From an uncultured Bacteroidales bacterium (GTDB taxonomy: Bacteria; Bacteroidota; Bacteroidia; Bacteroidales; UBA10428): DNA of 64,000 nt. The DNA is taken from contig CAYWBC010000002.1 in assembly GCA_964456285.1 (NCBI GenBank), positions 16,999-80,998 of the forward strand, in the 5' to 3' direction. The position numbers and the translations under genes are program-made. Below are positions 1,836 through 45,600 of this stretch, one piece after another (the first letter of the stretch is position 1; the number at the start of each line of letters is the position of its first letter). A model generated the notes under the pieces. That model was given only the letters and a program-made list of their open reading frames with translations, was not told where the DNA came from and made no database searches.

Positions 1836-2356
1836 TAAGGATTATTCTAACAGGACCTGAATCGACAGGGAAAACAGCTCTTACAACAAGTTTAGCAGCT
1901 ATTTACAAAGTTGGCAGTATTCAGGAATATGCCAGGGAGTATATTGCCAGCCTGAAAAGACCATATACCTATAAGGATGTTTTGCACATTGCACAGACTC
2001 AGGTCAGGCAGTTAGAAAACCACTCAAAAAAGGCTGATAGCATGCTATTTGTAGATACCTATTTAATTATTACAAAAATTTGGTTTGTGAAAGTTTATGG
2101 GGAATATCCCCTTTGGATTGATTCAGAAATTGGAAAAACAAGGAATGATCTGTATCTACTTCTAAAACCAGATATTCCCTGGATTCAGGATGAGGTTAGA
2201 GAAAATGGAGGTGCCATGCGAGAATTGCTATTCAGGGATTATGAAAAGGAATTAATAAAAGCAAAGCTAAATTATAAAATAGTCGGTGGCACAGATAATG
2301 ATAGGATAGATAATGCTCATGAGGAGGTACAGAAATTTATAAATTCTAGCATATGA
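1799..2356 (+). CDS. NadR C-terminal-domain-like P-loop kinase (putative ribosylnicotinamide kinase)
   Basis: Walker A GPESTGKT, ~185 aa, YAREY motif. Overlaps pnuC by 37 nt (alternative in-frame GTG at 1811). Confidence 0.65.
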   Translation: MASEVENTSRKIIRIILTGPESTGKTALTTSLAAIYKVGSIQEYAREYIASLKRPYTYKDVLHIAQTQVRQLENHSKKADSMLFVDTYLIITKIWFVKVYGEYPLWIDSEIGKTRNDLYLLLKPDIPWIQDEVRENGGAMRELLFRDYEKELIKAKLNYKIVGGTDNDRIDNAHEEVQKFINSSI

Positions 2357-3510
2357 CACAAAAAGAGGATCAGATGGAAATGGTTGCCAAAACATTTCCT
2401 GGTCTGGAAGAAATACTTGCAAAGGAAATAAGCCAGATTGGAGGTAAAGGAATAGAAATTTTAAATCGGGCAGTGAGGTTTTATGGCAATAAGTCATTAT
2501 TGTACAAATCAAATTTGTATTTAAGAACGGCATTGCGCATCCTTGTCCCAATCCTTAAGAAAAACATAAAAACCCAAATTGATTTATATGCTGTAATTAA
2601 AGAGTATGAATGGGAAAAGCATTTGAAACCAGGCATGACAATATCGATAGATACCTTTCTGAATTCATCTACTTTCACTCATTCACAATTTGTATCTCTT
2701 CGAACAAAAGATGCAATTGCTGATCGATTAAGACAAGTATTTAACCGAAGACCAAGTGTGGATAAAAACAATCCTGATCTTTCTGTCAACGTTCATTTGG
2801 TAAATAATGCACTAACAGTATCGATTGATTCTTCGGGTTCTTCTCTACATAAACGAGGATACAGAAAAGGAGATTTTGAAGCTCCTATAAATGAAGTGCT
2901 GGCAGCTGGATTAATTATGCTTACTGGCTGGAAAGGGGAAAAAGATTTTTATGATCCGATGTGTGGCTCAGGAACAATAGGCATTGAAGCTAGTCTTATT
3001 GCCCGGGAAATTCCTCCGGGTATTTTCAGAACACAGTTTGGATTTGAAAAACACAAGGACTTTGATGAAGCATTATGGAGCCAAATATATGATGATGTTC
3101 AGGAAAAAGAGTGGAAAGGAAAGATTATCTCAAGCGATATTTCTAAACAAGCAATTAAAATTGCTGCTGCAAATGCTAAAAATGCATCTGTTTTGAAAAA
3201 TATAAACTATATAGGCATTGATTTTCGGAATTACCCGCCAATTGACAATGGAGGAGTGGCAATTATAAATCCACCTTACGGGGAACGCATGGGGAGCGGT
3301 CAGATGACTAATTTCTATCGAATTATAGGAGATAGCATGAAGAAAAATTTTACTGGCGCAGAAGTTTGGATTTTAAGCAGTAATTTAAATGCATTGAAAC
3401 ATGTTGGCTTAAGACCCGTAGAAAGGTATAAAGTCTTTAATGGCGCCTTAGAATGCAGGTTTTTTAAATATGAAATTTATTCAGGGAGCAAGAAAAGTAA
3501 ATATAATTAA
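2353..3510 (+). CDS. THUMP-domain class I SAM-dependent RNA methyltransferase (RlmL/YpsC-like)
   Basis: SAM motif I DPMCGSGTIGIEA and catalytic NPPYGERMG. N-terminal THUMP-like region. ATGA start/stop overlap with the upstream gene. Confidence 0.8.
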   Translation: MTQKEDQMEMVAKTFPGLEEILAKEISQIGGKGIEILNRAVRFYGNKSLLYKSNLYLRTALRILVPILKKNIKTQIDLYAVIKEYEWEKHLKPGMTISIDTFLNSSTFTHSQFVSLRTKDAIADRLRQVFNRRPSVDKNNPDLSVNVHLVNNALTVSIDSSGSSLHKRGYRKGDFEAPINEVLAAGLIMLTGWKGEKDFYDPMCGSGTIGIEASLIAREIPPGIFRTQFGFEKHKDFDEALWSQIYDDVQEKEWKGKIISSDISKQAIKIAAANAKNASVLKNINYIGIDFRNYPPIDNGGVAIINPPYGERMGSGQMTNFYRIIGDSMKKNFTGAEVWILSSNLNALKHVGLRPVERYKVFNGALECRFFKYEIYSGSKKSKYN

Positions 3511-3653
3511 GCTGATAAAAGAATTGTAGAATTGTTGTTCTTAAAACGAAATAGTTTAAACATTTTATATTATATTTATCTAATAGCATTGCTTTAAATT
3601 ATCCTAAATGTTTTATGTGCCTTATTTTAAAGTTATACAATTAAGATTTTTTC

Positions 3654-3661
3654 TATATTTG
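3654..3661 (+). promoter_or_regulatory. candidate Bacteroidota -7 box (TATATTTG, fits TAnnTTTG)
   Basis: Exact TAnnTTTG match 40 nt upstream of the ATG at 3701. No clear -33 TTTG seen. Confidence 0.3.
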
Positions 3662-3700: not shown

Positions 3701-4249
3701 ATGAGCTTTAACATAAACGAATATTACACAGACATAAGTAAGGGAGATGTTCTTTTAGCCTACAAAGGAAGTATCACATCTGACTTAATTAATGAGGTAT
3801 TAGAAGCTGTTGAAGATAAGATGGAAGCTAATAAAGAAGAGGGAAAGACAAGGAAAAAGCTATACAATGTGCTTGTTGAAAGTCTCCAGAATTTATACCA
3901 TCATATTGAAGAAACACATGATGGAATAAACGAAGATCTAGATCCCAAATTTGGAATTCTTGTGGTTGAGAGAGAAAAAAATGGAGATTTTCGCGTTGTA
4001 ACCGGGAATTTTGTCGCCAATTCAAAAACTAAGTTTCTCAAAGAAAAAATTGATAAAATCAATTCATTGTCAAAAGATGAGTTGAAAGACATGTATAAAT
4101 TTATCTTAAATCATCAAAGAATCTCGGCTAAAGGTGGGGGAGGCCTGGGACTTGTTGATATTGCAAGGAAAACAGGTAAAAAAATGGTTTACAATTTCTA
4201 CCCCTACAACGATAAGTATGTATTTTTTGATTTAGCAATTCAGGTTTAA
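3701..4249 (+). CDS. SiaB-like small GHKL-type protein kinase (partner-switch kinase)
   Basis: 182 aa. Glycine-rich ATP-lid-like GGGGLGLVDIARKTG near the C-terminus. Size and pattern of the SiaB/DUF6272 family. Immediately upstream of a DUF1987 gene. Confidence 0.6.
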   Translation: MSFNINEYYTDISKGDVLLAYKGSITSDLINEVLEAVEDKMEANKEEGKTRKKLYNVLVESLQNLYHHIEETHDGINEDLDPKFGILVVEREKNGDFRVVTGNFVANSKTKFLKEKIDKINSLSKDELKDMYKFILNHQRISAKGGGGLGLVDIARKTGKKMVYNFYPYNDKYVFFDLAIQV

Positions 4250-4269
4250 TTGACTCAATATTTTTTGAT

Positions 4270-4650
4270 ATGGAATCACTGATAATAGAAGGAAGTACAA
4301 AAACACCAGATGTTAATTTCGACATCGAAAATGGTGCTTTAGAAATAAAAGGGAGATCAATTCCTGAAAATTCAATTGAGTTTTACAAACCATTGGTCGA
4401 TTGGCTGGAAGAATATGCTCAGGATCCAAAGTCTAAGACTATTGTTAATGTGCATTTGGAATATTTCAATACGAGTTCTTCTAAATGTATACTTGATGTA
4501 TTCAAAAAACTTGAAGCCATTCATAAAAACAAATACGATGTGCAGATAAACTGGTATTATGAAGAAGATGATGAAGATATGCTGGAAGCAGGGGAAGATT
4601 ATGAATCAATTATTAGAGTTCCGTTCAAAATGATTGAAATTGTAGATTAA
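4270..4650 (+). CDS. DUF1987 / SiaC-like regulatory phosphoprotein
   Basis: 126 aa. DUF1987 N-terminal pattern TPDVNFDIENGALEIKGRSIPENSIEFYKPLVDWLEEY. Thr68 within YFNTSSSK. Acidic tail. Confidence 0.7.
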   Translation: MESLIIEGSTKTPDVNFDIENGALEIKGRSIPENSIEFYKPLVDWLEEYAQDPKSKTIVNVHLEYFNTSSSKCILDVFKKLEAIHKNKYDVQINWYYEEDDEDMLEAGEDYESIIRVPFKMIEIVD

Positions 4651-4675
4651 TATAAAGAATTTGCGAAATATAAAA

Positions 4676-4704
4676 GGTTGCCTGATTAGGCAGCCTTTTT
4701 TTTT
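4676..4704 (+). terminator. rho-independent terminator after the SiaC-like gene
   Basis: Stem GGTTGCC (4676-4682) pairs with GGCAGCC (4689-4695), with one U-G wobble in the plus sense. 6-nt loop, then a 9-T run (4696-4704). Confidence 0.8.
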
Positions 4705-4839
4705 GCCCGAAAAGGAAAGATAATTTAGCCTGGGGCAGCAACTTTGTTCGAAACCATAAACTTCATGGCCCATTTAAATCAAATTCTCTTCAATAAACCA
4801 AAACTTGTGTTATTATAGCGCATATAAAATTGACACTTT

Positions 4840-5028
4840 GAAATATCATAGCAGATGCGCCATTAAAATATCGTATCCGATACCCATGGCGCTGCCATGG
4901 GCTAATTTATTATTGCCTTTCAGGCAAAAGATAAAATAAGGCTGCAAGCCTTAAATATTATAGCCTCGATCATTGGCCGGGGTATTAAGGTATAATTTCA
5001 AAATTGTCGCATCTGCCCACAATATTTC
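4840..5028. ncRNA. candidate ~190-nt structured RNA or inverted-repeat element (unclassified)
   Basis: Closing helix 4840-4846/5022-5028 (7 bp) plus 4851-4859/5008-5016 (9 bp) across a 4x5 internal loop. Encloses five hairpins: 4869-4882, 4883-4901, 4913-4927, 4938-4952, 4957-4996. No ORF >=60 aa. Confidence 0.35.
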
Positions 5029-5403
5029 GATAGTATAAATAATGTATGCGACAGGTAGCAGTAAACCTGACAAGAACAAAATATTAAGGATATCGATTTC
5101 TGAAATCTGAAATTAGTGCAATAGGATTTTTAAAAATTTAAGTTGTTTCTCATGTTTCGAACACCAGGGCACCACCAGGGTAAGAGGTTCAGAGTACCGC
5201 AATAACTATAGCTTGTATTATGTAAATTCTACAAAGGTACAGAGTACCGAAACATTGAAAAGCTCACGAGTGCCAGTTATAAATTAATATTGCAGTGCTT
5301 TGCATCTAAATTTGAACATTAAGACATCATAATTAGAGATATTATGCTGCTCTGCTACTCAATAAGAAGGGGCATAAGGAAAAAGAATTAACCTATATCA
5401 GAA

Positions 5404-5424
5404 AAGGCTGCAATTTGCAGCCTT
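5404..5424 (-). terminator. probable terminator of the ABC transporter gene
   Basis: Hairpin AAGGCTGC/GCAGCCTT (8 bp, 5-nt loop) a few nt beyond the minus-strand stop. Followed on the minus strand by only a short TTTT. Confidence 0.5.
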
Positions 5425-5427
5425 AGT

Positions 5428-8400
5428 TCATTCCTTTTTATTTAACCTTTGATTCAGGTTCTCAAACGCATCAAGTAACCTGCGCAGTCCTCTGTAATAG
5501 AGTAAAATATAGAAGAAAATACTCATTAACCAGATTACAATAGTGTTTACCCAGAATGTCGGATGATAGACTCCTAAAAATTTCTTCTGTGCCGCATAGA
5601 AATGTGCTTTGATAAAATTAGATTCCGGATCAAGATAAATAGGATCAATCTTTTGAATTAACCGACCCTTAAATTCTACAATCCTTACCGGTTCGTTACT
5701 ATTTTCAACAAATTCAGCCAACCTGTCATTGTGATAATCTCTTTTTTGCTGGATAAAGGTTTCTTTGTTCTCCGTTGATGTCTGATAGGAACGAATAATC
5801 TTATCTCTATTGTCGCTGGCTCTGTTGTATACAGTAATATAAACTCTATTTACTTTTCGAATGTACTCTTTGGTTGCGTTTATAATTTTAGCATCAATTT
5901 TATCTGGGTACAATTGATCCAGGTATTCAAATTCAATTCTATTATTTACTTTCAGTTCATCCCCGATTTCATTTCTTAATAACCTGAGGTAATTCTCAAT
6001 TTTAGCCTCATCACCATCTTTTTCCAGGTATTTATTTATATAGTCAAGTTTATTTTCAAGATTTTTAACCCAGTAGTACTTTTTGAATTCCGCAATACTC
6101 ATTACCTTGTTGATAGGGTAAAACTGGCTCATGTATTCATTTTGAGTGAATTGATAAACCGCTAAAGCTTCATAACCCCATCGGGCAGTCATAATTTCTC
6201 CGTAAAATGGAATTTTATTAGGAGACGATATGCTTGGATTCAGTTTTTCGTATTTCACAATTACACCACTAAGAATGATTTGAGGTATAACAAGAAAAGG
6301 TATTAATATGTAAATGGTTACTACTGTTTTAAAACTGTCCGATATCACTAATCCCATGAGATTGGCACTTACCCAGCAGCTAAACAATATAATCCAGTAA
6401 TGAAGATACATTCCCTTAATTTCCATTATCGAGTTCCCGACAATAACAAACAATGCAGCTTGAATTGCTGAAAGAGTGAGAAGCACCATTATTTTTGAGA
6501 TCAAATAACTCGACCAGCTTAAATTTAAGAAAGCCTCGCGCTTTAAGATCTTCCTGTCTTTTATAATTTCCTCTGCGCTTATGGTTAATCCCATAAAGAT
6601 TGCGACAATTACAGACATAAAGATGTAAACCGGCAAATTACTGTTTCCCAGCAATGTATACCCTACTTCATTCAAATCACTCTCGTTATAATACTTAATA
6701 ATAAAAGACAGAATGAAAGCCAATAAAGGAGCTTCAAGAAAATTGATTATTAAGTATTGTGAATTGGCAATCTTTGAAAGTACGTCACGCTTAACAAATA
6801 CAAGAAATTGCCGTATTTTATTTGGAATTTTGAAGGAAATATTTGGCAATTCTGTTACTTCTTTGACTTCTTCTCTCTGTTTCTTCTGTGTATGTTCAAT
6901 AAAGTACTTGTTCCATTCTTTAGGTGATTTTTTCCTTCGATGTGTGAATTTTCCATATTCATCAAGTATGTTTGATTCAACGATATTAAAAATCTGTTCA
7001 GGATTAACATTACCACAAACATTGCATTCACTCTCGTTGTAATTGGCGTAATGCGTCTTTGATTTGAAATACACAATCGAATCAATCGGATCACCATCAT
7101 AAATAAGGTATCCTCCGGTATCGAGAATCAGCAATTCATCGAACATCTTAAAAATATCTGATGAAGGTTGATGAATTACTACAAAAACAAGTTTTCCTTT
7201 TAAGGACAGTTCCTTCAACAAGTCCATGATGTTCTCAGAATCTCGTGATGACAATCCGGACGTTGGTTCATCTAGAAAAAGAACAGCTGGTTCACGAATC
7301 AGTTCCAGGGCTATATTCAGTCTTTTTCTTTGCCCTCCGCTAATCATCTTGTTCAGGGGTGAACCAACCTGAACATCTTTGATCTCAAACAATCCTAAAC
7401 TTTGCAACATCTTATCGACAGTAGCAATTAATTTTGCTTCTTTGTAGTTGCTAAAACAAAGTTTTGCATTGTAGTATAAATTCTGAAAAACAGTAAGTTC
7501 TTCAATCAGCAAATCATCTTGTGACACATAACCAATCAATCCCTCAATTTTATTCTTTTCTGTATGGATGTTTATTCCATTTACAGTAATGTTTCCTGTT
7601 GTAGGCTTTTCAGTACCATTAAGGACGTTTAGCAGGGTTGATTTGCCTGCTCCACTTGCTCCCATTATACCTACAAGTCTTCCCGAATCCTTCACAAAGC
7701 TCAAGGGTTCTAAACCCATATTGCCATTTTTAAACCGATAGCTAATATCGTTTACGCGAAATGTTATTTTGGATTCCTGTTGACCCGTATGAAATAAGGT
7801 TACTATATCGCTATAATATACCGGCCTAATGTTGTGATCGCGAATTGAGGAGCCTGAATTGAAAACAAAAACTTTAAAAGGTTGAAGTAGCTGGCCATTC
7901 AAATACAATTCATGATTCCCAAGATACCTTAATAGGTATATATTGGCAGTTGTAGCTTTTAATAACCAAAGCTCGCCTTTGAAATGCTTCGAATATAAGT
8001 GCTTGCTTATCGGGTTAGCTTTTTCATCCTGATTTTCATCAATAATGAGAATATTTTCAGACTGCGGTGCATTTCCGACCTCTTTTATTGTGAAATCACG
8101 AATCAAATCATGTTCTTCAGTATCAACATTGAATGAATCGGCAACTGTTTGTATAAATTCAAACTCCTGTTTTGAAATTTCTGCAGCATCTGAATCAGCA
8201 AACTCAAACAAGTGAATTACAACAATTAATTTTTGTTTTTGTGTAAGTTCCTTATTGATCTGATCGCAAATTCTGAGAATCTTCACTGAATCAGGACCAA
8301 TTCGTTTTACTCCTCTGGAATTTACAAGGCTTTGATGTCGTGCAAAAAATCTGTCGAAAATCTCAAGATAACCCTCAACGAGTTCCTGATTTAGTATACG

Positions 8401-8514
8401 ACCTAAATAGGACTCAACAACAGTACGCCTGTCGCTTCCATCAGTATTGTATTCATCGGGCCTCGCAATAATTGCGAAAAGCTCCATGAGGGCTTGTAAA
8501 ATTTGTTCACTCAT
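5428..8514 (-). CDS. ABCG-type ABC transporter, fused ATPase-permease with ~270-aa N-terminal regulatory region and ~250-aa C-terminal extension
   Basis: Walker A GASGAGKST, signature ISGGQRKR, Walker B LFLDEPTSGL. ABC-2-type 6-TM domain. Extra C-terminal soluble region plus a final TM. N-terminal region is TerB-like and weakly FHA-like by eye. Confidence 0.85.
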   Translation of the reverse strand: MSEQILQALMELFAIIARPDEYNTDGSDRRTVVESYLGRILNQELVEGYLEIFDRFFARHQSLVNSRGVKRIGPDSVKILRICDQINKELTQKQKLIVVIHLFEFADSDAAEISKQEFEFIQTVADSFNVDTEEHDLIRDFTIKEVGNAPQSENILIIDENQDEKANPISKHLYSKHFKGELWLLKATTANIYLLRYLGNHELYLNGQLLQPFKVFVFNSGSSIRDHNIRPVYYSDIVTLFHTGQQESKITFRVNDISYRFKNGNMGLEPLSFVKDSGRLVGIMGASGAGKSTLLNVLNGTEKPTTGNITVNGINIHTEKNKIEGLIGYVSQDDLLIEELTVFQNLYYNAKLCFSNYKEAKLIATVDKMLQSLGLFEIKDVQVGSPLNKMISGGQRKRLNIALELIREPAVLFLDEPTSGLSSRDSENIMDLLKELSLKGKLVFVVIHQPSSDIFKMFDELLILDTGGYLIYDGDPIDSIVYFKSKTHYANYNESECNVCGNVNPEQIFNIVESNILDEYGKFTHRRKKSPKEWNKYFIEHTQKKQREEVKEVTELPNISFKIPNKIRQFLVFVKRDVLSKIANSQYLIINFLEAPLLAFILSFIIKYYNESDLNEVGYTLLGNSNLPVYIFMSVIVAIFMGLTISAEEIIKDRKILKREAFLNLSWSSYLISKIMVLLTLSAIQAALFVIVGNSIMEIKGMYLHYWIILFSCWVSANLMGLVISDSFKTVVTIYILIPFLVIPQIILSGVIVKYEKLNPSISSPNKIPFYGEIMTARWGYEALAVYQFTQNEYMSQFYPINKVMSIAEFKKYYWVKNLENKLDYINKYLEKDGDEAKIENYLRLLRNEIGDELKVNNRIEFEYLDQLYPDKIDAKIINATKEYIRKVNRVYITVYNRASDNRDKIIRSYQTSTENKETFIQQKRDYHNDRLAEFVENSNEPVRIVEFKGRLIQKIDPIYLDPESNFIKAHFYAAQKKFLGVYHPTFWVNTIVIWLMSIFFYILLYYRGLRRLLDAFENLNQRLNKKE

Positions 8515-16940: not shown

Positions 16941-19900
16941 ATGTTGAAAAGAATAAGTAATAAATTTTTAATTCGAAATAATCGATTCATTGGGATACTG
17001 TTTACCTTGATTATGGGATTAATATTGCTTATATCAATTCCACTTCATGGCCAGTATAAAAATATGCAATTCGAATCGTTTAACGAAACGAATGGTTTAT
17101 CAAACAATAATGTAAATTGTATATTGAAAGATGCTGAAGGTTTCATCTGGGTAGGTACCGATAATGGCTTAAATCGATTTGATGGATACAATTTTACATC
17201 TTATGTTAATAATTCTGACGACTCAACCAGTCTGATCCATAATCATGTGCTGACTTTATTTCTGGCAAGTGATTCTACGCTTTGGGTAGGAACGCAATAT
17301 GGCATGTGCCGTTTCCAGAAGGAATATAATAATTTCGTCCAGATTCATGAGAGGTATATAGATGGTTTTACTAGAGGGTTTTTTGAAGATCAGAATGGAC
17401 AAGTGTATGCGGTACTCGACCGGGGAGAAATTTTTTCTTTAAAGGATAATAGACTTACCTCAAAACATAATGCAAATATATATGCACACTGTTACCTAAA
17501 AGGCAATGATGATATTCACTGGTTTGGAGTAGAAGACGGAATATGCAAATATTACGCCAGTAAAGACTCTCTGGTAAATTTTTCTTTAAGAAGATATAAT
17601 TCCGGGGAGAAAGTTGCTGTTTTTGCTCTTCAGGAATATAATAATAAATTATGGATAGGTACTCGTGGGTTTGGAGTATTCCTATTTGATTTGAGTTCAA
17701 ATCAAATCACACATCTTGATGAGAGTCTCGATTTTATTAAAACCATCGAGAAAGACAATCATGGATTAATATTTATTGGCAATACAATTGGATTGAAAGT
17801 TTATAACCAGGATTACAAAATGCTGGGTAGCTATAAGCCATTTAAAAAGTATAATCAGCAGGAAATTGATAATTCTGTTGAGGCTATATATTCAGATAAA
17901 CAGGGTAATTTATGGCTGGGTGTAAAATTCAGAGGTATTCAGATGGCTTATCCTCAAAAAGGTTTCCACAGTCTTAAGGAAGCCTTAGTTGCAAAAGTTT
18001 CACAAGAAGTGACTGTTGCTTCTGTACTGGCCGATGATGACCAGAACATTTGGTTAGGCTCCTTTAATAATGGTATTTTAAAACTAAACCTAAGAAGTGG
18101 TAAATCGGAGTATATTCCCTGCGCTGAAGGTGGATCCTCTGGTCTTCAATGTGGGACTGTATTTGAATTATTTCGTGATAAGAATTTGAACATCTGGATT
18201 GGAAGCTATTTTGGAGGCTTGCAAAAATTAATTCCGGAAACAAAGCAGGTAATCCATTATTCTCTTAACCATATTGACAAAAATGAACAGAGCTTAAAGG
18301 ATATCCGATCGATATGTGAGGATTATGAAGGGAATTATTGGATTGCTCCTCAAGGCAATGGCTTGATAAAATGGAATATGAATACAGGTGAATATGAACA
18401 GTTCCTGAATAATTACAACGACTCGTCAAGTCTTTGTAGTAATTGGGTTTTTCATGTAATTTGTGATAGTATGGGCTATATCTGGTGTGCCACCTCCAGT
18501 GGTCTTTCAGTGACTCGCAATAATGGGAAAACCTTTGAGAATTATTATCACAAATCTAATAATTCATCAAAACTCCTGAGCAATGAGGTTTTTACTGTAT
18601 TTGAGGATTCAAATAATCAAATATGGGTGGGAACCAGGAAAGGAATTAGTAAGTACAGAAAAGAATCGAATGATTTTATTCATTACACTTCAAAAGATGG
18701 TTTAATCAATGATTTTATCTGTGCCATTCAGGAAGATCATAATGGTTTATTATGGATATCAACTATGGAAGGTCTTTCCTGTTTTAATCCAAAAACAATT
18801 GAATTTAAAAATTATGATATGAGTGATGATTTCCCCAGCAATGAATTTATGGAAAATTCCTGTGCAATCACTCCATCAGGATATTTAATCTTTGGCGGCA
18901 TAAATGGCGGAATATGGTTTCATCCCGACTCCATTACTGAAAATAAGTTTCCTCCTAAGGTAAAACTAACTGATTTTAAGATCTTTAATCAGTCTGTTCC
19001 AATCAAGCCCAACGACAAAAATGCAGTACTAAATAAAGATATACAATACACCAGGAACCTGACGATTGATCACAAGCAAAAAATGATATCATTTGATTTT
19101 GTTGCTCTTAGTTTTGTGCATCCTGAGCAAAATAAATATGCATACAAACTGGAAAATTTTGATAATGATTGGATTAACGCAAATGACAAACGTGAAGCTA
19201 CTTATACCAGCTTGCCCCCTGGGAAATATATTTTTCGGGTCAAAGCAGCCAATAATGATGGGTATTGGAACAACGAAGGAGCGTCCGTTCAAATCACGGT
19301 ATTACCTTCCCCATGGAAGACCTGGTGGTTCCGTCTAATTGTAATTATTCTATTTCTTTCTATTACATTTTTAATTTATTATTTACGCGTTCAAAGAATG
19401 CGTGCCATTAACCTTACATTGGAAGACCTTGTGGATCAAAGGACCAAAGAACTTCAGACAATGAATATGAAACTTCAGGAACTCAATGCTACAAAAGACA
19501 AGCTTTTTTCCATAATTGGTCATGATCTCATGAACCCAATCAATACAATAAATGGATTCTCAGAATTATACATCAATTCATATCAAAAACTTTCTGATGA
19601 GAAAAAATGGAGTTACATGAGTCATATCCATACAGAAGTGAATAAAACAATTGATTTGCTGGATGGACTGCTTAACTGGGCAAGATCGAAAAGTGGGACG
19701 CTAGCCTTTAATCCCAAAAAAATTAACCTACACAATTTGATCGAGGTTAATATTACTTTTAATAAGCAAGCAGCGGACAAGAAGAAAATACGAATACAAA
19801 GTGAAATAGACGAAGAATATATTATTGCTCTGGGCGATGAGAATATGATTAATACAGTACTGCGAAATCTGATTTCCAATGCCATAAAATTTACTCCAAA

Positions 19901-20186
19901 TAAAGGAAGTATTTCAATCAAATGCGGTCCATTTTCGGAGTCTGGATTTGTTTTACTAGAGGTTTCCGATACAGGTGTTGGTATTCTTTCGAAGGATATT
20001 GACTGCCTTTTTAGGATTGATAGTAATAAAACTACTAAAGGGACAGAAGGTGAAACAGGCACGGGTTTGGGATTGATTCTTTGTAAGGAATTTGTAGAAA
20101 AAAATAACGGAACCATATGGATAGAAAGTGAAGTAGAGAAAGGTTCAAGTTTCTTTTTTACATTACCTGTCGTTGCGCCTAATTAA
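16941..20186 (+). CDS. sensor histidine kinase with tandem beta-propeller (Reg_prop) + Y_Y_Y periplasmic sensor; no receiver or DNA-binding domain
   Basis: N-terminal TM. Many W.GT..GL propeller repeats. Y_Y_Y region YAYKLENFDNDW...GKYIFRVKA. TM WWFRLIVIILFL. H-box FSIIGHDLMNPIN. HATPase GTGLGL. Ends right after the ATPase domain. Confidence 0.9.
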   Translation: MLKRISNKFLIRNNRFIGILFTLIMGLILLISIPLHGQYKNMQFESFNETNGLSNNNVNCILKDAEGFIWVGTDNGLNRFDGYNFTSYVNNSDDSTSLIHNHVLTLFLASDSTLWVGTQYGMCRFQKEYNNFVQIHERYIDGFTRGFFEDQNGQVYAVLDRGEIFSLKDNRLTSKHNANIYAHCYLKGNDDIHWFGVEDGICKYYASKDSLVNFSLRRYNSGEKVAVFALQEYNNKLWIGTRGFGVFLFDLSSNQITHLDESLDFIKTIEKDNHGLIFIGNTIGLKVYNQDYKMLGSYKPFKKYNQQEIDNSVEAIYSDKQGNLWLGVKFRGIQMAYPQKGFHSLKEALVAKVSQEVTVASVLADDDQNIWLGSFNNGILKLNLRSGKSEYIPCAEGGSSGLQCGTVFELFRDKNLNIWIGSYFGGLQKLIPETKQVIHYSLNHIDKNEQSLKDIRSICEDYEGNYWIAPQGNGLIKWNMNTGEYEQFLNNYNDSSSLCSNWVFHVICDSMGYIWCATSSGLSVTRNNGKTFENYYHKSNNSSKLLSNEVFTVFEDSNNQIWVGTRKGISKYRKESNDFIHYTSKDGLINDFICAIQEDHNGLLWISTMEGLSCFNPKTIEFKNYDMSDDFPSNEFMENSCAITPSGYLIFGGINGGIWFHPDSITENKFPPKVKLTDFKIFNQSVPIKPNDKNAVLNKDIQYTRNLTIDHKQKMISFDFVALSFVHPEQNKYAYKLENFDNDWINANDKREATYTSLPPGKYIFRVKAANNDGYWNNEGASVQITVLPSPWKTWWFRLIVIILFLSITFLIYYLRVQRMRAINLTLEDLVDQRTKELQTMNMKLQELNATKDKLFSIIGHDLMNPINTINGFSELYINSYQKLSDEKKWSYMSHIHTEVNKTIDLLDGLLNWARSKSGTLAFNPKKINLHNLIEVNITFNKQAADKKKIRIQSEIDEEYIIALGDENMINTVLRNLISNAIKFTPNKGSISIKCGPFSESGFVLLEVSDTGVGILSKDIDCLFRIDSNKTTKGTEGETGTGLGLILCKEFVEKNNGTIWIESEVEKGSSFFFTLPVVAPN

Positions 20187-20399: not shown

Positions 20400-20738
20400 T
20401 TAATTGAAACTTTTTAAACAATCATCCTGAGTTTCATAAAGATCAAATACGTTGTGCAACTGTAAAAGTTTAAACAGATCCATTACTTCTTTTTTGATGT
20501 TACAGATTTTAAACTGTCCGTGGTTACTGTTTGCGGTTTTCATTATAGACAGGAAAACGCCAAAACCGGAGCTGTCAATAAATTTAATGCCTTCCAAATC
20601 AAGGGCTAATTTAGTGCCGGGCTTATTAAACATATTTTTCAGCTGTTCTTTTACTGGCTCAACAATCAAAGCATTAAAACGGTCTACCTCATTGAATTTT
20701 ACCACAATAACGTTGTTAACTTTCTCAGTTTTAAGCAT
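20400..20738 (-). CDS. STAS-domain anti-sigma-factor-antagonist-like protein
   Basis: 112 aa. SpoIIAA-like pattern with the conserved phospho-serine motif FIDSSGFGVF. Confidence 0.85.
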   Translation of the reverse strand: MLKTEKVNNVIVVKFNEVDRFNALIVEPVKEQLKNMFNKPGTKLALDLEGIKFIDSSGFGVFLSIMKTANSNHGQFKICNIKKEVMDLFKLLQLHNVFDLYETQDDCLKSFN

Positions 20739-20750
20739 AAGTAGAAATAT

Positions 20751-21104
20751 TTAAATGTAAATATCAATGTTATTAATTACTTCATTTAGCTCCTCAACTG
20801 CCTCTCTTGTTACATCTTTGAACTTTTCAATAAACTCAGGATACGTTTCAACTTCCTCTCCAGCCTTCGTAAGTTCTTCAAATGATTTAAGATCCTTTGC
20901 CAAATCCTCCAACCCCATGATTGAGATGGATGATTTTGCTTTGTGTGCAAGTCTTCCTAATTGCTCATAATCCTTGTTGTTGTATAACTCTTTCATTCCA
21001 AGATTGAATTCAATAACCTGAGATTTAAAGATAGTGATCATTTCAATGATCAGCTCTTTATTCCCAGCCGACATATTTTTCAAATAAGTGAGGTCGATTT
21101 TCAT
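20751..21104 (-). CDS. stand-alone Hpt (histidine phosphotransfer) domain protein
   Basis: 117 aa. Hpt signature LAHKAKSSISIMGLEDLA (HxxKxS...G). 12-nt gap to the downstream STAS gene. Confidence 0.8.
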   Translation of the reverse strand: MKIDLTYLKNMSAGNKELIIEMITIFKSQVIEFNLGMKELYNNKDYEQLGRLAHKAKSSISIMGLEDLAKDLKSFEELTKAGEEVETYPEFIEKFKDVTREAVEELNEVINNIDIYI

Positions 21105-34820: not shown

Positions 34821-35663
34821 CTATTCATTCGTTTTATCCGGATAAAAATGCACATCCCTTTGAGGGAAAGGAATTCTGATGCCATTCTTTCTGAATGCAT
34901 CGTCAATCTTAAAGCGAATATTACTTTTTGTATCTTCTACACGAAATGTTTCTATTGTCCAAAAAAACAATTCAAAATCGAGTGAAGAATTTCCAAAATC
35001 GACAAAACGAACAAAGGGTGAAGGGTTGTTGAAAATTGTTTCCTGATCGGTTGCACATTCAAGCAAAACTTTTTTTACAAGGGGTACATCCGATCCATAG
35101 GCTACACCCACTTTGACACAGAAACGGGTTTTCTTTTCCATATGGCTCCAGTTTATAACCACATCGTTAATAAGCTTCGAATTTGGTACAATCAGTATAA
35201 TGTTATCTCTGGTTTCAAGCTTGGAAGTGCGCAAGTTTATTTGCTTTACTCTGCCCACTTCACCTTCTGCAATTTGCACAACATCATTTACCCTCAATGT
35301 ACCTTCAATAAGCAAAGATATGCCCGATACAAAATCCTGAAATATTTTCTGCAGGCCAAGACCCAGACCAACCAATAAAGCGGCTGAACTGGCCAGTAGA
35401 AATGTAATCTTTATACCAATCGAATCAAGAGTCAAGGCAACTGCAATTACCCACAACACATACTTGATTAACTGATACATGGCTTGACCGGTTCCCTGAT
35501 CAATGCGGTTTCGCTTTTCTTGTTTGAAAAATATTCTGCGAATAATTAATAAAATAATTGGCGTAATGATCAATATTAAAAAGACAATGAGGAGGTGAAA
35601 TACCGTAATTTGAATTTTGTCAGTACTGATCAATTCAATCTCAAAAAATTCTTTTATACTCAT
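34821..35663 (-). CDS. MscS-family mechanosensitive channel
   Basis: 3 TM plus MscS beta-domain pattern (VNDVVQIAEGEVGRVKQINLRTSKLETRDNIILIVPNSKL). Starts 12 nt after the cdaA stop. Confidence 0.85.
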   Translation of the reverse strand: MSIKEFFEIELISTDKIQITVFHLLIVFLILIITPIILLIIRRIFFKQEKRNRIDQGTGQAMYQLIKYVLWVIAVALTLDSIGIKITFLLASSAALLVGLGLGLQKIFQDFVSGISLLIEGTLRVNDVVQIAEGEVGRVKQINLRTSKLETRDNIILIVPNSKLINDVVINWSHMEKKTRFCVKVGVAYGSDVPLVKKVLLECATDQETIFNNPSPFVRFVDFGNSSLDFELFFWTIETFRVEDTKSNIRFKIDDAFRKNGIRIPFPQRDVHFYPDKTNE

Positions 35664-35675
35664 TTAAGTAATGTA

Positions 35676-36455
35676 TTATCCAAAGTGTTTTTTCAAAATA
35701 TTCCAAAGATCTTGTTCTCCAACTCCCGAAATCAATTCTCCATGTTCTGCAATGGAAATATCTCCACGTTCCTCAGAAACAATAATTACAACAGCATCTG
35801 TATTTTCACTAATTCCAAGTCCGGCCCTATGTCTCATGCCATAATAGGGTGGAAGATTTGTATTGCTTGAAAATGGTAAAACAGATCGTGCAGATACAAT
35901 CAGGTCATCGTGAATGATTGCTGCTCCATCATGCAGGGGACCGGTTTTCAGAAATATACTCTCTAGCAATCGGCTGGAAGTCTGAGCATTCAAAATATCT
36001 CCCGTTTCGGCATATAATTCGAGAGATGATTTACGGGAGATTACTATCAGGGCACCTGTATAACTATTCGACATATTAATACAGGCTTTATGAATGGATG
36101 ATATCTTAACTTTTTCTATGATTGACTCACCTCTTTTTAATATGTTCTGCAGGGAAAATTTCTTGTTGGGAAAGTATTTGCTACCTAAAAAAATCAAATA
36201 CCTTCTTATTTCCTGCTGAAAAAGAATAATTAGGGCTATGGCTCCTCCTTCAATTACAGCACCTAAAATTGATGTGAGTAGTTTCATTTTTAACATGCTC
36301 ACAAAAAAGTGAAGGAGCCAGATACCTATTATAGCAACAAAAATATTGAATGCAGCAGTGCCTCTGATTATCATGTATATCTGGTACATTAAAAAGGCAA
36401 CTAGAAGAATGTCAATAATATCTATAAAACGTACTGTTATAAATGTGAAAAGCAT
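35676..36455 (-). CDS. cdaA: membrane-anchored diadenylate cyclase CdaA
   Basis: 3 N-terminal TM. DAC domain motifs DGAAII and GMRHRAGLGISE. Confidence 0.9.
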   Translation of the reverse strand: MLFTFITVRFIDIIDILLVAFLMYQIYMIIRGTAAFNIFVAIIGIWLLHFFVSMLKMKLLTSILGAVIEGGAIALIILFQQEIRRYLIFLGSKYFPNKKFSLQNILKRGESIIEKVKISSIHKACINMSNSYTGALIVISRKSSLELYAETGDILNAQTSSRLLESIFLKTGPLHDGAAIIHDDLIVSARSVLPFSSNTNLPPYYGMRHRAGLGISENTDAVVIIVSEERGDISIAEHGELISGVGEQDLWNILKKHFG

Positions 36456-36487: not shown

Positions 36488-37375
36488 TTACTTCTGTAGG
36501 TTGATATAATTCATACCCTCCTCCTTTGTTTTCAAATATAAATTAATGGTTTGTCTGGCTTCTTTAACATCATGAACCCGTAAGATATTTGCTCCATTTG
36601 TAAGTGCAATCATGTTTAGAGCAATGGTTCCATTCAATGACTCCTCAGCATTGATTTCCAGAAAACGATAGATCATAGATTTCCTGCTAATTCCTGCAAG
36701 CACGGGACAATTTAAAATTTTGAAGGCACTGAGATGTGCCAATAGTTGATAATTTTGCCCCATGGTCTTGCCAAAGCCGAATCCGGGATCAATTATGATA
36801 TCATTGAGTCCCTTCTGCTTCAATGAATCAATTTGAGTTCCCAGAAAATCAATGATGTCATTTATCAGGTCATTGTATTTAGTCTTTGATTGCATATTCT
36901 TTGGGGTTCCGGGCATGTGCATAATGATATAAGGTATCTGAAGTTCTGCAATAGTATCATGCATTTTAGAATCTATTTGCCCCCCGGAAATATCATTAAT
37001 CATATTGATACTAAATTCATTAACAAGTTCTCGAGCTATTGCAGATCTAAATGTATCAACAGATAGCAGATGATCAGGATATTTCTTACGTATTATATTT
37101 AATGCTAAAGTCAATCTTCGTAATTCTTCCTTTTCACTAATATTATCTGCTCCCGGTCTTGATGAATATGCTCCTATGTCAATAATTTCTACGCCATCTA
37201 AAATCAATTCTCCCACTCTTGCGAGTATTGAATTTTCTTCCGTGTATTTTCCACCGTCAAAGAAGGAATCGGGAGTAATATTTAGAATGCCCATAATTTT
37301 TGGAGACGAAAAATCCAGACATTTTCCTCTGCAGTTAATGATTTGTTTCTTTTCAAAAAATGTATCTTTATCCAT
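36488..37375 (-). CDS. folP: dihydropteroate synthase FolP
   Basis: GILNITPDSFFDGG, DIGAYSSRPG, DPGFGFGK. ATG at 37375 (MDKDTFF...) preferred; the ORF is open to a GTG at 37426. Confidence 0.9.
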   Translation of the reverse strand: MDKDTFFEKKQIINCRGKCLDFSSPKIMGILNITPDSFFDGGKYTEENSILARVGELILDGVEIIDIGAYSSRPGADNISEKEELRRLTLALNIIRKKYPDHLLSVDTFRSAIARELVNEFSINMINDISGGQIDSKMHDTIAELQIPYIIMHMPGTPKNMQSKTKYNDLINDIIDFLGTQIDSLKQKGLNDIIIDPGFGFGKTMGQNYQLLAHLSAFKILNCPVLAGISRKSMIYRFLEINAEESLNGTIALNMIALTNGANILRVHDVKEARQTINLYLKTKEEGMNYINLQK

Positions 37376-37450
37376 CAGAACAATTGGTGTTGATCCCTTC
37401 GTAAAGGTAAAAATAAGCATTAGCACCTGGAATATCTTGAGAAAAAATTA

Positions 37451-42663: not shown

Positions 42664-45600
42664 ATGCATTCAGCGATTCACTGTAAACGATTATTCAAGC
42701 TAGTATTCATTGTCTTTCTCAATATCTGTGCAGTTACGCTATATGCGAAAAAAATTGAAGTGTTTAGCGGTGATCCTTTAGTTTATATTGAAGAGCTATC
42801 TAATTTCCTGAGCAGTCTGCCTGAACAATACGAAGATGTTCCTGAAAAATTTATACAGGCCTGGGAAGAGGATAGTTTATTTGACTCAACAGAGCGAGAA
42901 AATATAATTCGCATGAGTCAGCTTATGATCAAAAGAAATACAAAACCATATCCGCATTTTTACAATTTTTTGTCCTGTATGCTTGCATTTGAAGAATTCA
43001 ATTCAAGCGAATCGAATTACAACAATTGGGTGGAAGGTTTTGAAAAACTTCTGGATAAAAGAAAAACCAAGACCTTTGAAATAAATAATATTCTTACGTT
43101 CACCAACATTTTGCTAAGGGAAAGTCTAATTTATAGATCAAACTCTACAACATGGAAAGTTGGCAATGGAAGCTACAAGATTCTAGACGATAAGGATTTA
43201 AGTGTTGAATTTACTGATGTTGATTTGATATGTTATGCAAAGCGTGATAGCATGCACCTTTTCAATACAAATGGAGTTGCCTATCCAATTGAAATAATCT
43301 GGAAAGGGAGCGGAGGACTAGTTACCTGGGAAAGAGGTGGATATAGTCGGGATGATGTTTTTGCTACTATTAAGGACTATGAAATCGATCTTAAGAAATC
43401 AGAATACTATGCCGAGGATGTAACCTTCACAAACAAGATATATTTTGATGAACCTCTTCAAGGTGTATTGCATGATAAAGTTAAGTTCAATAGTGATCCG
43501 GACAATGCCACTTATCCTAAATTCGATTCTTACACCAAAGAATTTACGATTGAAAATTTGTATGAAAACATTGATTATGAAGGAGGTTTATCGATGCAGG
43601 GAGCAAAACTTGTGGGAACAGGGACCATAGAAAAAACTGCCAAGCTGAAAATATATCGGAATGACACCCTTGTACTTACAGCGTCCTCTGTTTTCTTTGG
43701 ATTTAGGAGTGACAGGGTTTCGAGTTTGAGAACTTCTGTTTCAATAAAGTTGAGAAATGATTCTATTTTTCATCCAGATCTGTTTTTTACTTATAGGGTG
43801 AAAAATAAAGAACTTACACTTCTTAAATCAGACAATTACGCTTCACAGGGTCCTTATTCAGATTCTTATCATAAGGTGGATATGAATTTTGAGCAGTTAA
43901 CTTGGCGTATGGATGAAGATGTAATGAATTTTACGGCTCCCCGTGGTGCTGCTATTGGTAATGCCTATTTTGAATCAGTAAACTATTTTAATCATGATAA
44001 ATTCATGAAAATGATGATGATGGATAATGCTCATCCATTGGTGTCATTGAAGAGTTTTGCCAGGAAATATGGCAGCGATGAATTTTCTGTGAGTGTTTAT
44101 GCTGATTATTTAAATATGCCATTGCATGAAGTTCAACAACAGGCAATGCGGATGGCTTATGGAGGATTTATTTATTATGATAAAAATACAGAAACAATAA
44201 CTCTAAAACCCCGCTTATACGATTACCTTGCTGCAAGTATCAATAAAATAGATTATGATGTTATGGGCTTTGAATCAGTAGTTGAAGCACCCATGGAAAA
44301 TGCTATTTATAATTTGAAAACCAACGATTTGATAATCAATGGCATTCCCGAAATTCACGTTAGTGATTCTCAAAATGTTATCATATATCCAAAATACAAC
44401 CGAATCATTCTGAAAAGCAACAGGAATTTTCAATTTGATGGGATTGTACAGGCTGGATTATTATCATTTTTCGGCAGTAATTTTTTCTTTCATTACGATT
44501 CCTTTAAAGTGAATATGCAAAATGTAGATTCACTGAATATTGAATTTCTTACAGGCAAGAGGGATAATTATGGTTTGCCAATCGTCGACTTTGTTAAAAA
44601 CAGATTACATCACATTACCGGGGAGGTTTTGATTGACAAACCAGATAATAAATCAGGAAGAGAAAGCTATCCGGAATACCCCATTTTTACCAGCAAGGAA
44701 AACTCTTTTGTATACTATGAAAAAAGTAATATTCAGAAAGGAGTATATGAATCGAATGATTTTTATTTTGAGGTCTATCCATTTGTAATGGATAGTCTGG
44801 ACAATTTTAATTATAAGGACCTGTATTTTGAAGGTGAGTTTGTATCCGCGGGAATATTTCCTTCGTTCGAGAAAAAATTATCACTTCAACCTGATAATTC
44901 GCTGGGCTTTAGACATATGACTCCTGAAGAGGGGTATCCGGTTTACAATGGGAAAGGTACATTCAATAATGAGATTTGGCTATCTAACAAAGGATTGAGA
45001 GCTGATGGGACCCTGAAATACCTGACTTCAACTACTCAATCCAATGATTTCATTTTTTATCCGGACTCAATGAATACGCTTTCCAATAGTTATGCTATTG
45101 TCCAGCAAACTACTGAGCCGCAGTATCCAAGAGTAAAATCAGTTAATAACTACATTCATTGGTTGCCTTATGCTGATAAAATGTACGCTGAAAAAACAGA
45201 TACTGATTTTACAATGTTTAACGATTCAACGAAACTTAATGGCAATCTACTCCTGGAACCAATTGGCTTATCAGGTAATGGAAAGATGGATCTGAAAAAT
45301 TCAGATTTGCATTCCAACTTATTTACATATAAAGCACAGGATATATATTCAGATACTGCCGATTTTTATCTAAAATCGCTTCATACAGATGGTTTTACAG
45401 TGTTAACAGACAATATGAATGCCCACATTGATTACCGACAAAAAAAGGGCTGGTTTAAATCAAATGATGAATTTGCCCTGGTAAATTTCCCGGATAATAA
45501 GTACGTCAGTTACATTGACTATTTCATATGGGATATGGTAGAGAAGGAGTTGGCCATGGGATCCTGGTCAGATACAGATAGTATTGATTATACTGGTGAA

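Follow-up and report, generated by a model that had tools for sequence, protein, structure and literature searches.

What does a SiaB/SiaC-like pair act on when neither the phosphatase nor the diguanylate cyclase of the SiaABCD system is encoded beside it? To our knowledge, SiaB and SiaC have been studied in one setting only, namely in Pseudomonas, where their output is the activation of a diguanylate cyclase. A pair of this kind is present in the 64-kb stretch of DNA analysed here (referred to as the window), and it is probably an independently transcribed two-gene operon in which a SiaB-family Ser/Thr kinase and its SiaC-family substrate make up the kinase/phosphoprotein core of a SiaABC-type partner switch. 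Comparisons were made with a set of 84 related loci from different species, each taken with 10 kb on either side and picked by similarity to SiaC.

The first gene of the pair (positions 3701-4249, plus strand) encodes a SiaB-like protein of 182 amino acids and the second (4270-4650, plus strand) encodes a SiaC-like protein of 126 amino acids. Both ORFs and the 20-nt gap between them were found where the preliminary description had placed them, and its assignment of the products to the SiaB-like and DUF1987 families was borne out by profile searches. The SiaB-like protein matches Pfam DUF6272 (PF19788) with an E-value of 6.6e-39 and belongs to the NCBIfam family NF038262 (SiaB_fam_kinase), which it matches over residues 7-182 of 182 with 160.3 bits against a cutoff of 85. 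It also matches SiaB of P. aeruginosa (PDB 6kko_A) over 166 residues with an E-value of 1e-13. E60 of the SiaB-like protein aligns with E61 of P. aeruginosa SiaB, which is the predicted catalytic residue (PMC7647112), and the glycine-rich GGGGLGL segment at residues 145-151 (G145-L151) resembles an ATP-lid loop. E60, Q63, N64 and the GGGLGL stretch are kept in at least 97% of 84 sequences, E60 and N64 forming a catalytic-type motif. The AF2 model of the protein, based on a shallow alignment with nine sequences more than 90% identical, has a pLDDT of 39.5 and is unusable for judging the GHKL-type fold that the preliminary description gave the kinase.

The SiaC-like protein is a member of Pfam PF09345 (SiaC/DUF1987), with an E-value of 3.3e-46 and 156.3 bits against a cutoff of 24.5, and its residues 6-123 cover profile positions 1-119 of 120. 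Its alignment to P. aeruginosa SiaC (6kko_C/6k4f) is ungapped (E-value 5e-19), and therefore its N67-T68-S69 falls on the published N67/T68/S69 phospho-site (PMC8457831, PMC7647112). This agrees with the earlier placing of T68, within YFNTSSSK, at the phospho-acceptor position of SiaC. In P. aeruginosa, T68 is the site under the control of SiaB and SiaA, and N67, T68 and S69 are required for partner binding (PMC8457831, PMC7278518). The motif YFNTSSSKC, including the predicted acceptor T68, is kept in at least 97% of 87 SiaC-like sequences, and identity to the SiaC-like proteins of 83 related loci ranges from 76 to 94%. DUF1987 also occurs in fusions with TIR and with HEAT repeats, and as tandem copies.

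Neither protein attains its NCBIfam equivalog cutoff, the SiaB-like protein scoring 90.1 bits against 225 for NF038264 (kinase_SiaB) and the SiaC-like protein 104.2 bits against 150 for the SiaC model NF038265. They are thus family members and not orthologues of SiaB (PA0171) or SiaC proper, and judging by these scores their function may have diverged from that of the Pseudomonas proteins. Values of dN/dS are 0.03 for the siaB-like gene and 0.025-0.066 for the siaC-like gene, and this range (0.03-0.07) indicates that both ORFs are real genes under very strong purifying selection.

The arrangement of the two genes is that expected of an operon. The 20-nt intergenic spacer (4250-4269, plus strand) is consistent with co-transcription; among about 83 loci from different species there are 77 in which the siaB gene immediately precedes siaC, and the gap is 1-44 nt in these 77 loci. 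In other genomes DUF6272 and SiaC are fused into single polypeptides. The genes for kinase and phosphoprotein are thus adjacent, co-oriented and conserved as a unit, as in a partner-switch module. A sigma-70 promoter scan of the plus strand upstream of the pair gave no match, and a scan for the Bacteroidetes motif TAnnTTTG, which we take to be the -7 consensus of that group, was used in its place. The candidate promoter read from the sequence is a -7 box of this type, TATATTTG, at 3654-3661 on the plus strand, about 40 nt 5' of the start codon of the siaB-like gene. Of 79 related loci, 75 have the motif in the 200 nt preceding siaB, and its positions cluster sharply between -50 and -41. Downstream of the pair, a terminator scan found an intrinsic terminator-like hairpin of 12 pairs, with a loop of 4 and a T-tract behind it (placed at 4672-4699 or 4672-4705, plus strand). 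In 51 of 78 related loci, too, a hairpin with a T-tract lies in the 120 nt that follow the siaC stop codon. The candidate promoter and the strong terminator credited to the pair in the preliminary description both recur in relatives. Rfam matches around the pair were all sub-threshold.

The absence of SiaA and SiaD partners from the window, claimed at the outset, is upheld by a wider search. Pfam detected no PP2C/SpoIIE or GGDEF gene in most of the large ORFs of the 64-kb window. Using phmmer at E<=1, two SiaA-like SpoIIE queries found no SpoIIE/PP2C protein in the six-frame translation of the window or within 10 kb of the 84 related loci, a search that a very divergent PP2C could escape, and a SiaD-like cyclase query found no GGDEF protein in the window or the same loci. 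Neither the SiaA phosphatase nor the SiaD cyclase accompanies the pair at this locus. A second SiaC paralogue was considered as a general part of the system and rejected, being found in only about 10 related loci and in none of the closest relatives. A role of the pair in anti-phage defence was likewise set aside, PADLOC having given nothing meaningful.

How such a pair would work can be sketched by analogy with SiaB and SiaC of P. aeruginosa. The SiaC-like protein is most likely the substrate of the SiaB-like kinase, which would phosphorylate it at T68 with ATP. Unphosphorylated SiaC would bind and modulate a target protein, and phosphorylation would block this binding. The switch would be reset, on a signal, by a phosphatase of the SpoIIE/PP2C family whose gene would lie elsewhere in the genome. 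The target itself would be unlinked to the pair and would differ from a SiaD-type diguanylate cyclase. Sequence identity in the same 25 genomes is 78% for SiaC, a figure somewhat inflated by the choice of loci for SiaC similarity, 64% for ClpB and 57% for SiaB. The better conservation of SiaC suggests that the output runs through SiaC rather than SiaB, as SiaC must fit the kinase, the phosphatase and the target.

It is also conceivable, although unlikely, that it is the kinase which carries the output, as RsbW and SpoIIAB do. The SiaB-like protein would then sequester a sigma factor or an enzyme, and unphosphorylated SiaC would be only the antagonist that frees this target. Published work does cast SiaABC as a partner switch, with SiaB in the role of the anti-sigma kinase and SiaC in that of the antagonist (PMC7647112), and no SiaC target is encoded near the pair. 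However, in the sole characterised system it is SiaC that binds SiaD, whereas SiaB does not bind SiaD (PMC7278518). Moreover, the conserved neighbours of the pair include no sigma factor gene, and the lower identity of SiaB fits the presence of extra interaction surfaces on SiaC.

An output through SiaC could be directed at a neighbouring gene product, and the flanks of the pair are those named in the preliminary description. Pfam identifies a THUMP/RlmL-type RNA methyltransferase gene upstream (2353-3510, plus strand) and an ABCG-type ABC transporter gene convergent to the pair (5428-8514, minus strand). That the pair regulates either of these products is doubtful. The authors of the SiaC-SiaD structure proposed that DUF1987 proteins modulate adjacent proteins (PMC8457831), and of 61 informative loci, 54 have rlmL next to the pair and 53 have the ABC gene next to it in convergent orientation. 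However, a 20-kb block comprising rpsA, guaA, rlmL, siaBC, the ABC gene and clpB is syntenic in the clade as a whole, so that adjacency is a feature of the block rather than of the pair. The pair also persists where one of the neighbours has been lost (rlmL in 7 of the 61 loci, the ABC gene in 8), and the pairs in Bernardetia and at loci L002 and L003 have other neighbours. The pair and the ABC gene, being convergent, are not co-transcribed.

A point in favour of the transporter is its cytoplasmic N-terminus, in which a helical TerB-like domain is combined with a beta domain of FHA-like type. Phosphothreonine is the usual ligand of FHA domains. An AF2 model of this N-terminus has a pLDDT of 89.8, and its top 30 Foldseek matches in the PDB are all FHA. 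However, the E-values of these matches are weak (best 0.011), the sequence profile of the region gives only the FHA domain of MEK1 at an E-value of 1.1, Pfam finds TerB alone, and the canonical phosphothreonine-binding residues of FHA domains are not evident by eye. A more specific version, which we regard as improbable, is that SiaB/SiaC of Bacteroidales have been rewired away from c-di-GMP to another kind of output, for which the syntenic ABCG-type exporter is the most concrete candidate. The pair would gate this exporter by docking of SiaC on its N-terminus with the TerB-like and divergent FHA-like domains. This version would place the SpoIIE phosphatase elsewhere, shared with the nearby Hpt-STAS operon (20400-21104), which is separate from the SiaB/SiaC pair in the window.

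It is more improbable still that the pair has no dedicated phosphatase, and that phosphorylation of SiaC tracks ATP/ADP and the turnover of SiaC, making the pair a sensor of energy state. SpoIIAB in its ADP-bound form traps unphosphorylated SpoIIAA, which is a point for such a scheme, as is the lack of a phosphatase gene linked to the pair in any related locus examined. SiaABCD, furthermore, answers to carbon availability in Pseudomonas (PMC7647112). However, a gene that is absent from the neighbourhood need not be absent from the genome, and SpoIIE-family phosphatases are common in Bacteroidales and in Bacteroidota generally, where they occur alongside other SiaB/SiaC modules. The least credible reading, that of a rearranged or decayed siaABCD locus with SiaA and SiaD nearby in relatives, can point to canonical SpoIIE-SiaB-SiaC-(HK)-DGC loci in Proteobacteria (e.g. 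Azospirillum) and to SpoIIE-SiaB-SiaC triples in Bacteroidota but is largely refuted, as neither the window nor the 84 related loci with 10 kb on either side gave a SpoIIE/PP2C or GGDEF match at E<=1, the phosphatase-linked SiaC of Bacteroidales is only 40% identical, and the pair is extremely conserved.

The preferred reading, a kinase/phosphoprotein core with its output through SiaC, is that of a module in its own right. The pair holds together when either flank changes, which argues for an autonomous module and against a rearranged siaABCD locus, in line with the preliminary description. Its view of the pair as an orphan needs to be qualified. The pair does stand alone, but it is less unusual than the term implied: the NCBI name "SiaB family protein kinase" is already carried by one member of the 90% cluster of the SiaB-like protein, similar pairs occur in Cytophagales, and the pair is very common in species genomes of Bacteroidales.

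In Bacteroidales, an order with many environmental and gut anaerobes, the kinase/phosphoprotein core is very widespread as an operon of its own, with no linked cyclase or phosphatase. The exceptional constraint on SiaC relative to ClpB, together with this spread without a linked cyclase, implies an important and conserved target. Our analysis speaks for DUF1987 as a phospho-switch domain of general use. Both families and the public naming of the pair were already known, and the novelty lies in the wiring and the pattern of conservation. The practical gain is modest, since the families are already recognised and named in public annotation.

Among the closest known systems is that of P. aeruginosa, where SiaB (PA0171) and SiaC (PA0170; PDB 6KKO/6K4F) belong to the same two families as the window pair. 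In both cases the kinase gene lies immediately 5' of the phosphoprotein gene, and the NTS motif, the catalytic Glu and the glycine-rich loop are common to both. However, the host of SiaABCD is a proteobacterium and that of the window pair a member of Bacteroidales, and SiaABCD includes SiaA (PP2C) and SiaD (GGDEF), which have no counterpart in the operon, elsewhere in the window or at the related loci. The window SiaC must act on a target that is not a neighbouring diguanylate cyclase.

Three-gene SpoIIE-SiaB-SiaC modules are present on plasmid pPP7 of Persicobacter psychrovividus and in the Bacteroidales MAG JAAUTK010000115.1. They share with the window pair the order of the genes, with the SiaB-family kinase ahead of the DUF1987 protein, the phylum Bacteroidota and the lack of a cyclase. 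They differ in having a TPR-SpoIIE gene directly upstream, in one case together with a response-regulator-SpoIIE gene, and their SiaC proteins are only 35-40% identical to the window SiaC (40% in the Bacteroidales MAG), which marks them as a separate lineage. A phosphatase-linked type of SiaB/SiaC is thus present within Bacteroidales too, and phosphatases with TPR or response-regulator domains adjoin this paralogous type in both Bacteroidales and Cytophagales. The pair on the Bernardetia sp. plasmid NZ_CP147018.1 (Cytophagales) resembles the window pair in being stand-alone, with no adjacent phosphatase or cyclase, and was named "SiaB family protein kinase" and "DUF1987 domain-containing protein" by the NCBI pipeline. 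It differs from the window pair in its identity of 45%, its other neighbours and its location on a plasmid.

Further parallels are RsbW/RsbV, SpoIIAB/SpoIIAA and HptB-HsbR-HsbA. SiaC has been reported to be structurally STAS-like (PMC7647112, PMC8457831). At the level of sequence, the SiaB-like protein has no Pfam match to HATPase_c, and hhalign gave no signal either for the SiaB family against an RsbW-like HATPase_c_2 kinase (probability 0.2) or for the SiaC family against a STAS protein, so that kinship with GHKL kinases and STAS proteins is drawn from published structures only. The acceptor also differs, being a Thr in the NTS motif of SiaC and a Ser in the DSSG motif of STAS proteins. The logic shared by all of these systems and the window pair is that of a small kinase acting with a small phosphorylatable antagonist.

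The siaB-like ORF (3701-4249, + strand, 182 aa) and the siaC-like ORF (4270-4650, + strand, 126 aa) are co-oriented and separated by 20 nt. The siaB-like product matches Pfam DUF6272 (E 6.6e-39) and, with 160 bits, exceeds the cutoff of 85 for 'SiaB family protein kinase', a subfamily profile of NCBIfam; with the equivalog model for SiaB itself it reaches only 90 bits, below the cutoff of 225. The siaC-like product matches Pfam SiaC/DUF1987 (E 3.3e-46) and reaches 104 bits with the SiaC equivalog model, below the cutoff of 150. Judged by these profiles, both genes are genuine members of the SiaB and SiaC families but fall outside the SiaB and SiaC orthologues as NCBI's own thresholds define them. 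Both products directly match the chains of the solved SiaB-SiaC complex of Pseudomonas aeruginosa (6KKO): the SiaC match (E 5e-19) covers 119 residues without a gap, the SiaB match (E 1e-13) 166 residues. Because the SiaC alignment contains no gaps, N67-T68-S69 of the window protein coincide with N67/T68/S69 of PA0170, the P. aeruginosa SiaC. T68 of PA0170 is phosphorylated by SiaB and dephosphorylated by SiaA, and the NTS triplet is needed for SiaD binding (PMC8457831, PMC7278518, PMC7647112). In the window SiaB, E60 aligns to Glu61, the predicted catalytic residue of P. aeruginosa SiaB (PMC7647112); N64 comes after it and the GGGGLGL loop spans residues 145-151. The preliminary description, which had recognized a SiaB-like kinase, a DUF1987 protein 20 nt downstream and a Thr68 at the phospho-acceptor position, is thus borne out by the HMM matches, the measured gap and the alignment.

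Across one set of 25 genomes, SiaC has a median identity to the window protein of 78%, a figure somewhat inflated because the loci were picked for SiaC similarity; the corresponding medians are 64% (ClpB), 57% (SiaB), 55% (ABC transporter) and 44% (RlmL). Despite this selection, it is notable that a regulator of 126 aa ranks above ClpB. Compared with its closest relatives, the pair has a dN/dS of 0.025-0.066; synonymous sites are nearly saturated. Conservation of at least 97% is seen in SiaC for YFNTSSSKC and an acidic C-terminal segment, and in SiaB for E60, Q63, N64 and GGGLGL. That SiaC is the more tightly constrained agrees with a role in which it must accommodate kinase, phosphatase and one or more targets.

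A generic scan found no sigma-70 promoter on the + strand, as a Bacteroidota genome would give. A candidate -7 box, TATATTTG (3654-3661), fits TAnnTTTG, the Bacteroidetes -7 consensus. This motif occurs within 200 nt upstream of siaB in 75/79 related loci, peaking sharply 41-50 nt ahead of the siaB ORF start. A terminator scan placed a 12-bp hairpin with a T-tract 3' of siaC (4672-4699), and similar hairpins are present in 51/78 related loci. Between rlmL and siaB the median distance is 162 nt, between siaB and siaC it is 1-44 nt. Because of the -7 box, the hairpin and the gap sizes, the pair looks like a separate two-gene operon, with the promoter box and terminator that had been proposed for it. 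The motif TATGTGCC (3614-3621) precedes the -7 box by ~35 nt, and the four closest relatives (L005-L008) have ATGTGC(C) at the corresponding position; a -33 element or a site bound by a regulator are possible readings. A non-coding spacer of ~730 nt (4700-5427) separates the siaC terminator from the stop codon of the ABC gene; in most relatives the ABC gene ends only ~70-100 nt past siaC. The spacer holds further hairpins (4883-4901, +; 4953-4937, -) and a sub-threshold Rfam Acido-Lenti-1 match at 4883-4927 (27 bits, gathering score 37).

Related loci were drawn from a scan of species-representative genomes, which gave at least 549 confirmed matching stretches; the best 80 of these are all from Bacteroidales or Bacteroidota MAGs, with SiaC identities of 76-94%. 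A SiaB-like ORF lies immediately 5' of SiaC in 77 of ~83 loci, the exceptions being mostly contig edges. Neither PP2C/SpoIIE nor GGDEF domains turned up when most large ORFs of the 64-kb window were scanned with Pfam. Annotated plasmid loci of Azospirillum (SpoIIE-SiaB-SiaC-HK-DGC) and Persicobacter (SpoIIE-SiaB-SiaC) supplied phmmer queries, namely SpoIIE phosphatases resembling SiaA and a cyclase resembling SiaD, and these returned nothing at E<=1 in the six-frame window or in 84 related loci (±10 kb). Both searches agree with the earlier statement that the window lacks these partners.

What is observed for this pair is its family membership, the conservation of catalytic and acceptor residues, an operon-like arrangement, purifying selection and, in the window and related loci searched, no linked phosphatase or cyclase gene. 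We consider it likely that it forms a SiaB-SiaC switch with an unlinked phosphatase. SiaB would phosphorylate T68 of SiaC; the unphosphorylated form would bind its target through the surface around N67-T68-S69, phosphorylation would block this binding, and a SpoIIE-family phosphatase coded elsewhere would reset the switch. The target would be something other than an adjacent diguanylate cyclase.

Output through the kinase, on the model of RsbW-type systems, is unlikely. It is rather improbable that the pair regulates the product of a neighbouring gene. The syntenic block runs through rpsA, STAS, an RNase-Z-like gene, guaA, S41 peptidase, (pnuC, a NadR-like AAA_28 gene), rlmL, siaB, siaC and the convergent ABC transporter, and continues with ClpB and the Hpt+STAS operon. 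Among 61 loci with sufficient sequence on both sides, rlmL and the ABC gene are both kept in 48, the ABC gene alone is lost in 6, rlmL alone in 5 and both in 2. Since siaB-siaC stays intact whichever flank goes, the pair is a conserved unit, the autonomous module first described, and neither flanking gene is specifically tied to it. The ABC gene (5428-8514, - strand) codes for a half-transporter of the ABCG type whose N-terminus is extended by ~260 cytoplasmic aa (7714-8514, -); in this extension Pfam finds TerB only. A confident AF2 model (42 homologues, pLDDT 89.8) has a TerB-like helical domain (residues 1-143) and a beta domain (155-245). All of the best 30 Foldseek matches in the PDB are FHA domains (MEK1, Rad53 FHA1, KIF1A and EssC among them), with weak E-values (0.011 at best); the sole sequence-profile match of the beta domain is MEK1 FHA (E 1.1). 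Phosphothreonine is the normal ligand of FHA domains, so a link between this FHA-like extension and a Thr-phosphorylated SiaC could be imagined. Homologues of the extension share N206, G207, G221, S223, R225, Y233, S235 and D236 with little or no variation. However, canonical FHA binding residues are not evident by eye, the gene is convergent to the pair and its adjacency is no tighter than that of rlmL, which makes such a link highly doubtful. A phosphatase-free switch sensing ATP/ADP appears very improbable. A rearranged canonical siaABCD locus is essentially refuted, as no SiaA or SiaD adjoins the pair in related genomes (84 loci, ±10 kb), and the orphan status given to the pair holds. The preferred SiaB-SiaC switch with an unlinked phosphatase keeps to the earlier reading of a stand-alone pair, which was accurate.

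Some 16 kb beyond siaC there is a small operon for an Hpt-domain protein (20400-20738, -) and a STAS protein whose phospho-serine motif is DSSG (20751-21104, -), with homologues across related loci (47 and 53, respectively); relatives carry a further STAS gene adjoining rpsA. No RsbW-type kinase or PP2C was found near this operon, so a second partner-switch system, too, is without its enzymes nearby. In the window, ClpB and the operon are separated by a histidine kinase of the Reg_prop/Y_Y_Y kind (16941-20186). Only one cyclic-dinucleotide cyclase was found in the window, a CdaA-type diadenylate cyclase (DAC + CdaA_N; 35676-36455, -) at a distance of 31 kb from siaB-siaC. Its gene is flanked by one for an MscS-like channel (34821-35663) and by a Pterin_bind gene that is probably folP (36488-37426). 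The 1,505-aa ORF at 42664-47181 (+) has no Pfam match at E<=1e-4.

The SiaC family comprises 5,190 representative clusters (50% identity, E<=1e-3) in a library of 1.84 billion proteins. The best library matches include DUF6272+SiaC single polypeptides, which support the two proteins working together. Other architectures are tandem SiaC-SiaC, HEAT-repeat+SiaC, TIR+SiaC and an SLT-domain fusion (fusion examples in the representative library are P0205, P0247, P0250, P0216, P0256, P0213 and P0214); some may be gene-calling artefacts. Given this variety, DUF1987 looks like a modular regulatory domain. In the literature searched, DUF1987 is mentioned by a single paper, which suggests a modulating action of such proteins on adjacent ones (PMC8457831). 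The name 'SiaB family protein kinase' is already on a protein in the 90% cluster of the window kinase. The family is known and its parts are named in public annotation; the wiring of the pair is new. What matters is that the pair is widespread and its phosphoprotein extremely conserved.

About ten related loci carry a second stand-alone SiaC-family gene (127-135 aa) upstream of the pair (L003, 4801-5184; L002, 4014-4400; also L012, L019, L020, L027, L035, L039, L040 and L054). In L002 and L003 it lies between guaA and the S41 peptidase gene; the window begins within the latter, downstream of this position. Ser replaces Thr at position 68 in three aligned copies (YYNSSS/YYNSGS). The gene is absent from the closest relatives L006-L008 and L091.

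With the SpoIIE domain from Persicobacter as the seed, a search reached a Bacteroidales MAG contig (JAAUTK010000115.1, L088, 1043-5224) with RR-SpoIIE, TPR, SpoIIE, DUF6272 and SiaC in a row. Its SiaB-like ORF has just 121 aa and may be truncated or miscalled. Since the SiaC of this contig shares just 40% identity with that of the window, Bacteroidales hold at least two SiaB/SiaC lineages, one phosphatase-linked and one stand-alone. The arrangement in L088 resembles the triple of the Persicobacter plasmid (L087), whereas the window pair has no linked phosphatase; a Bernardetia (Cytophagales) plasmid also carries a stand-alone pair, annotated likewise.
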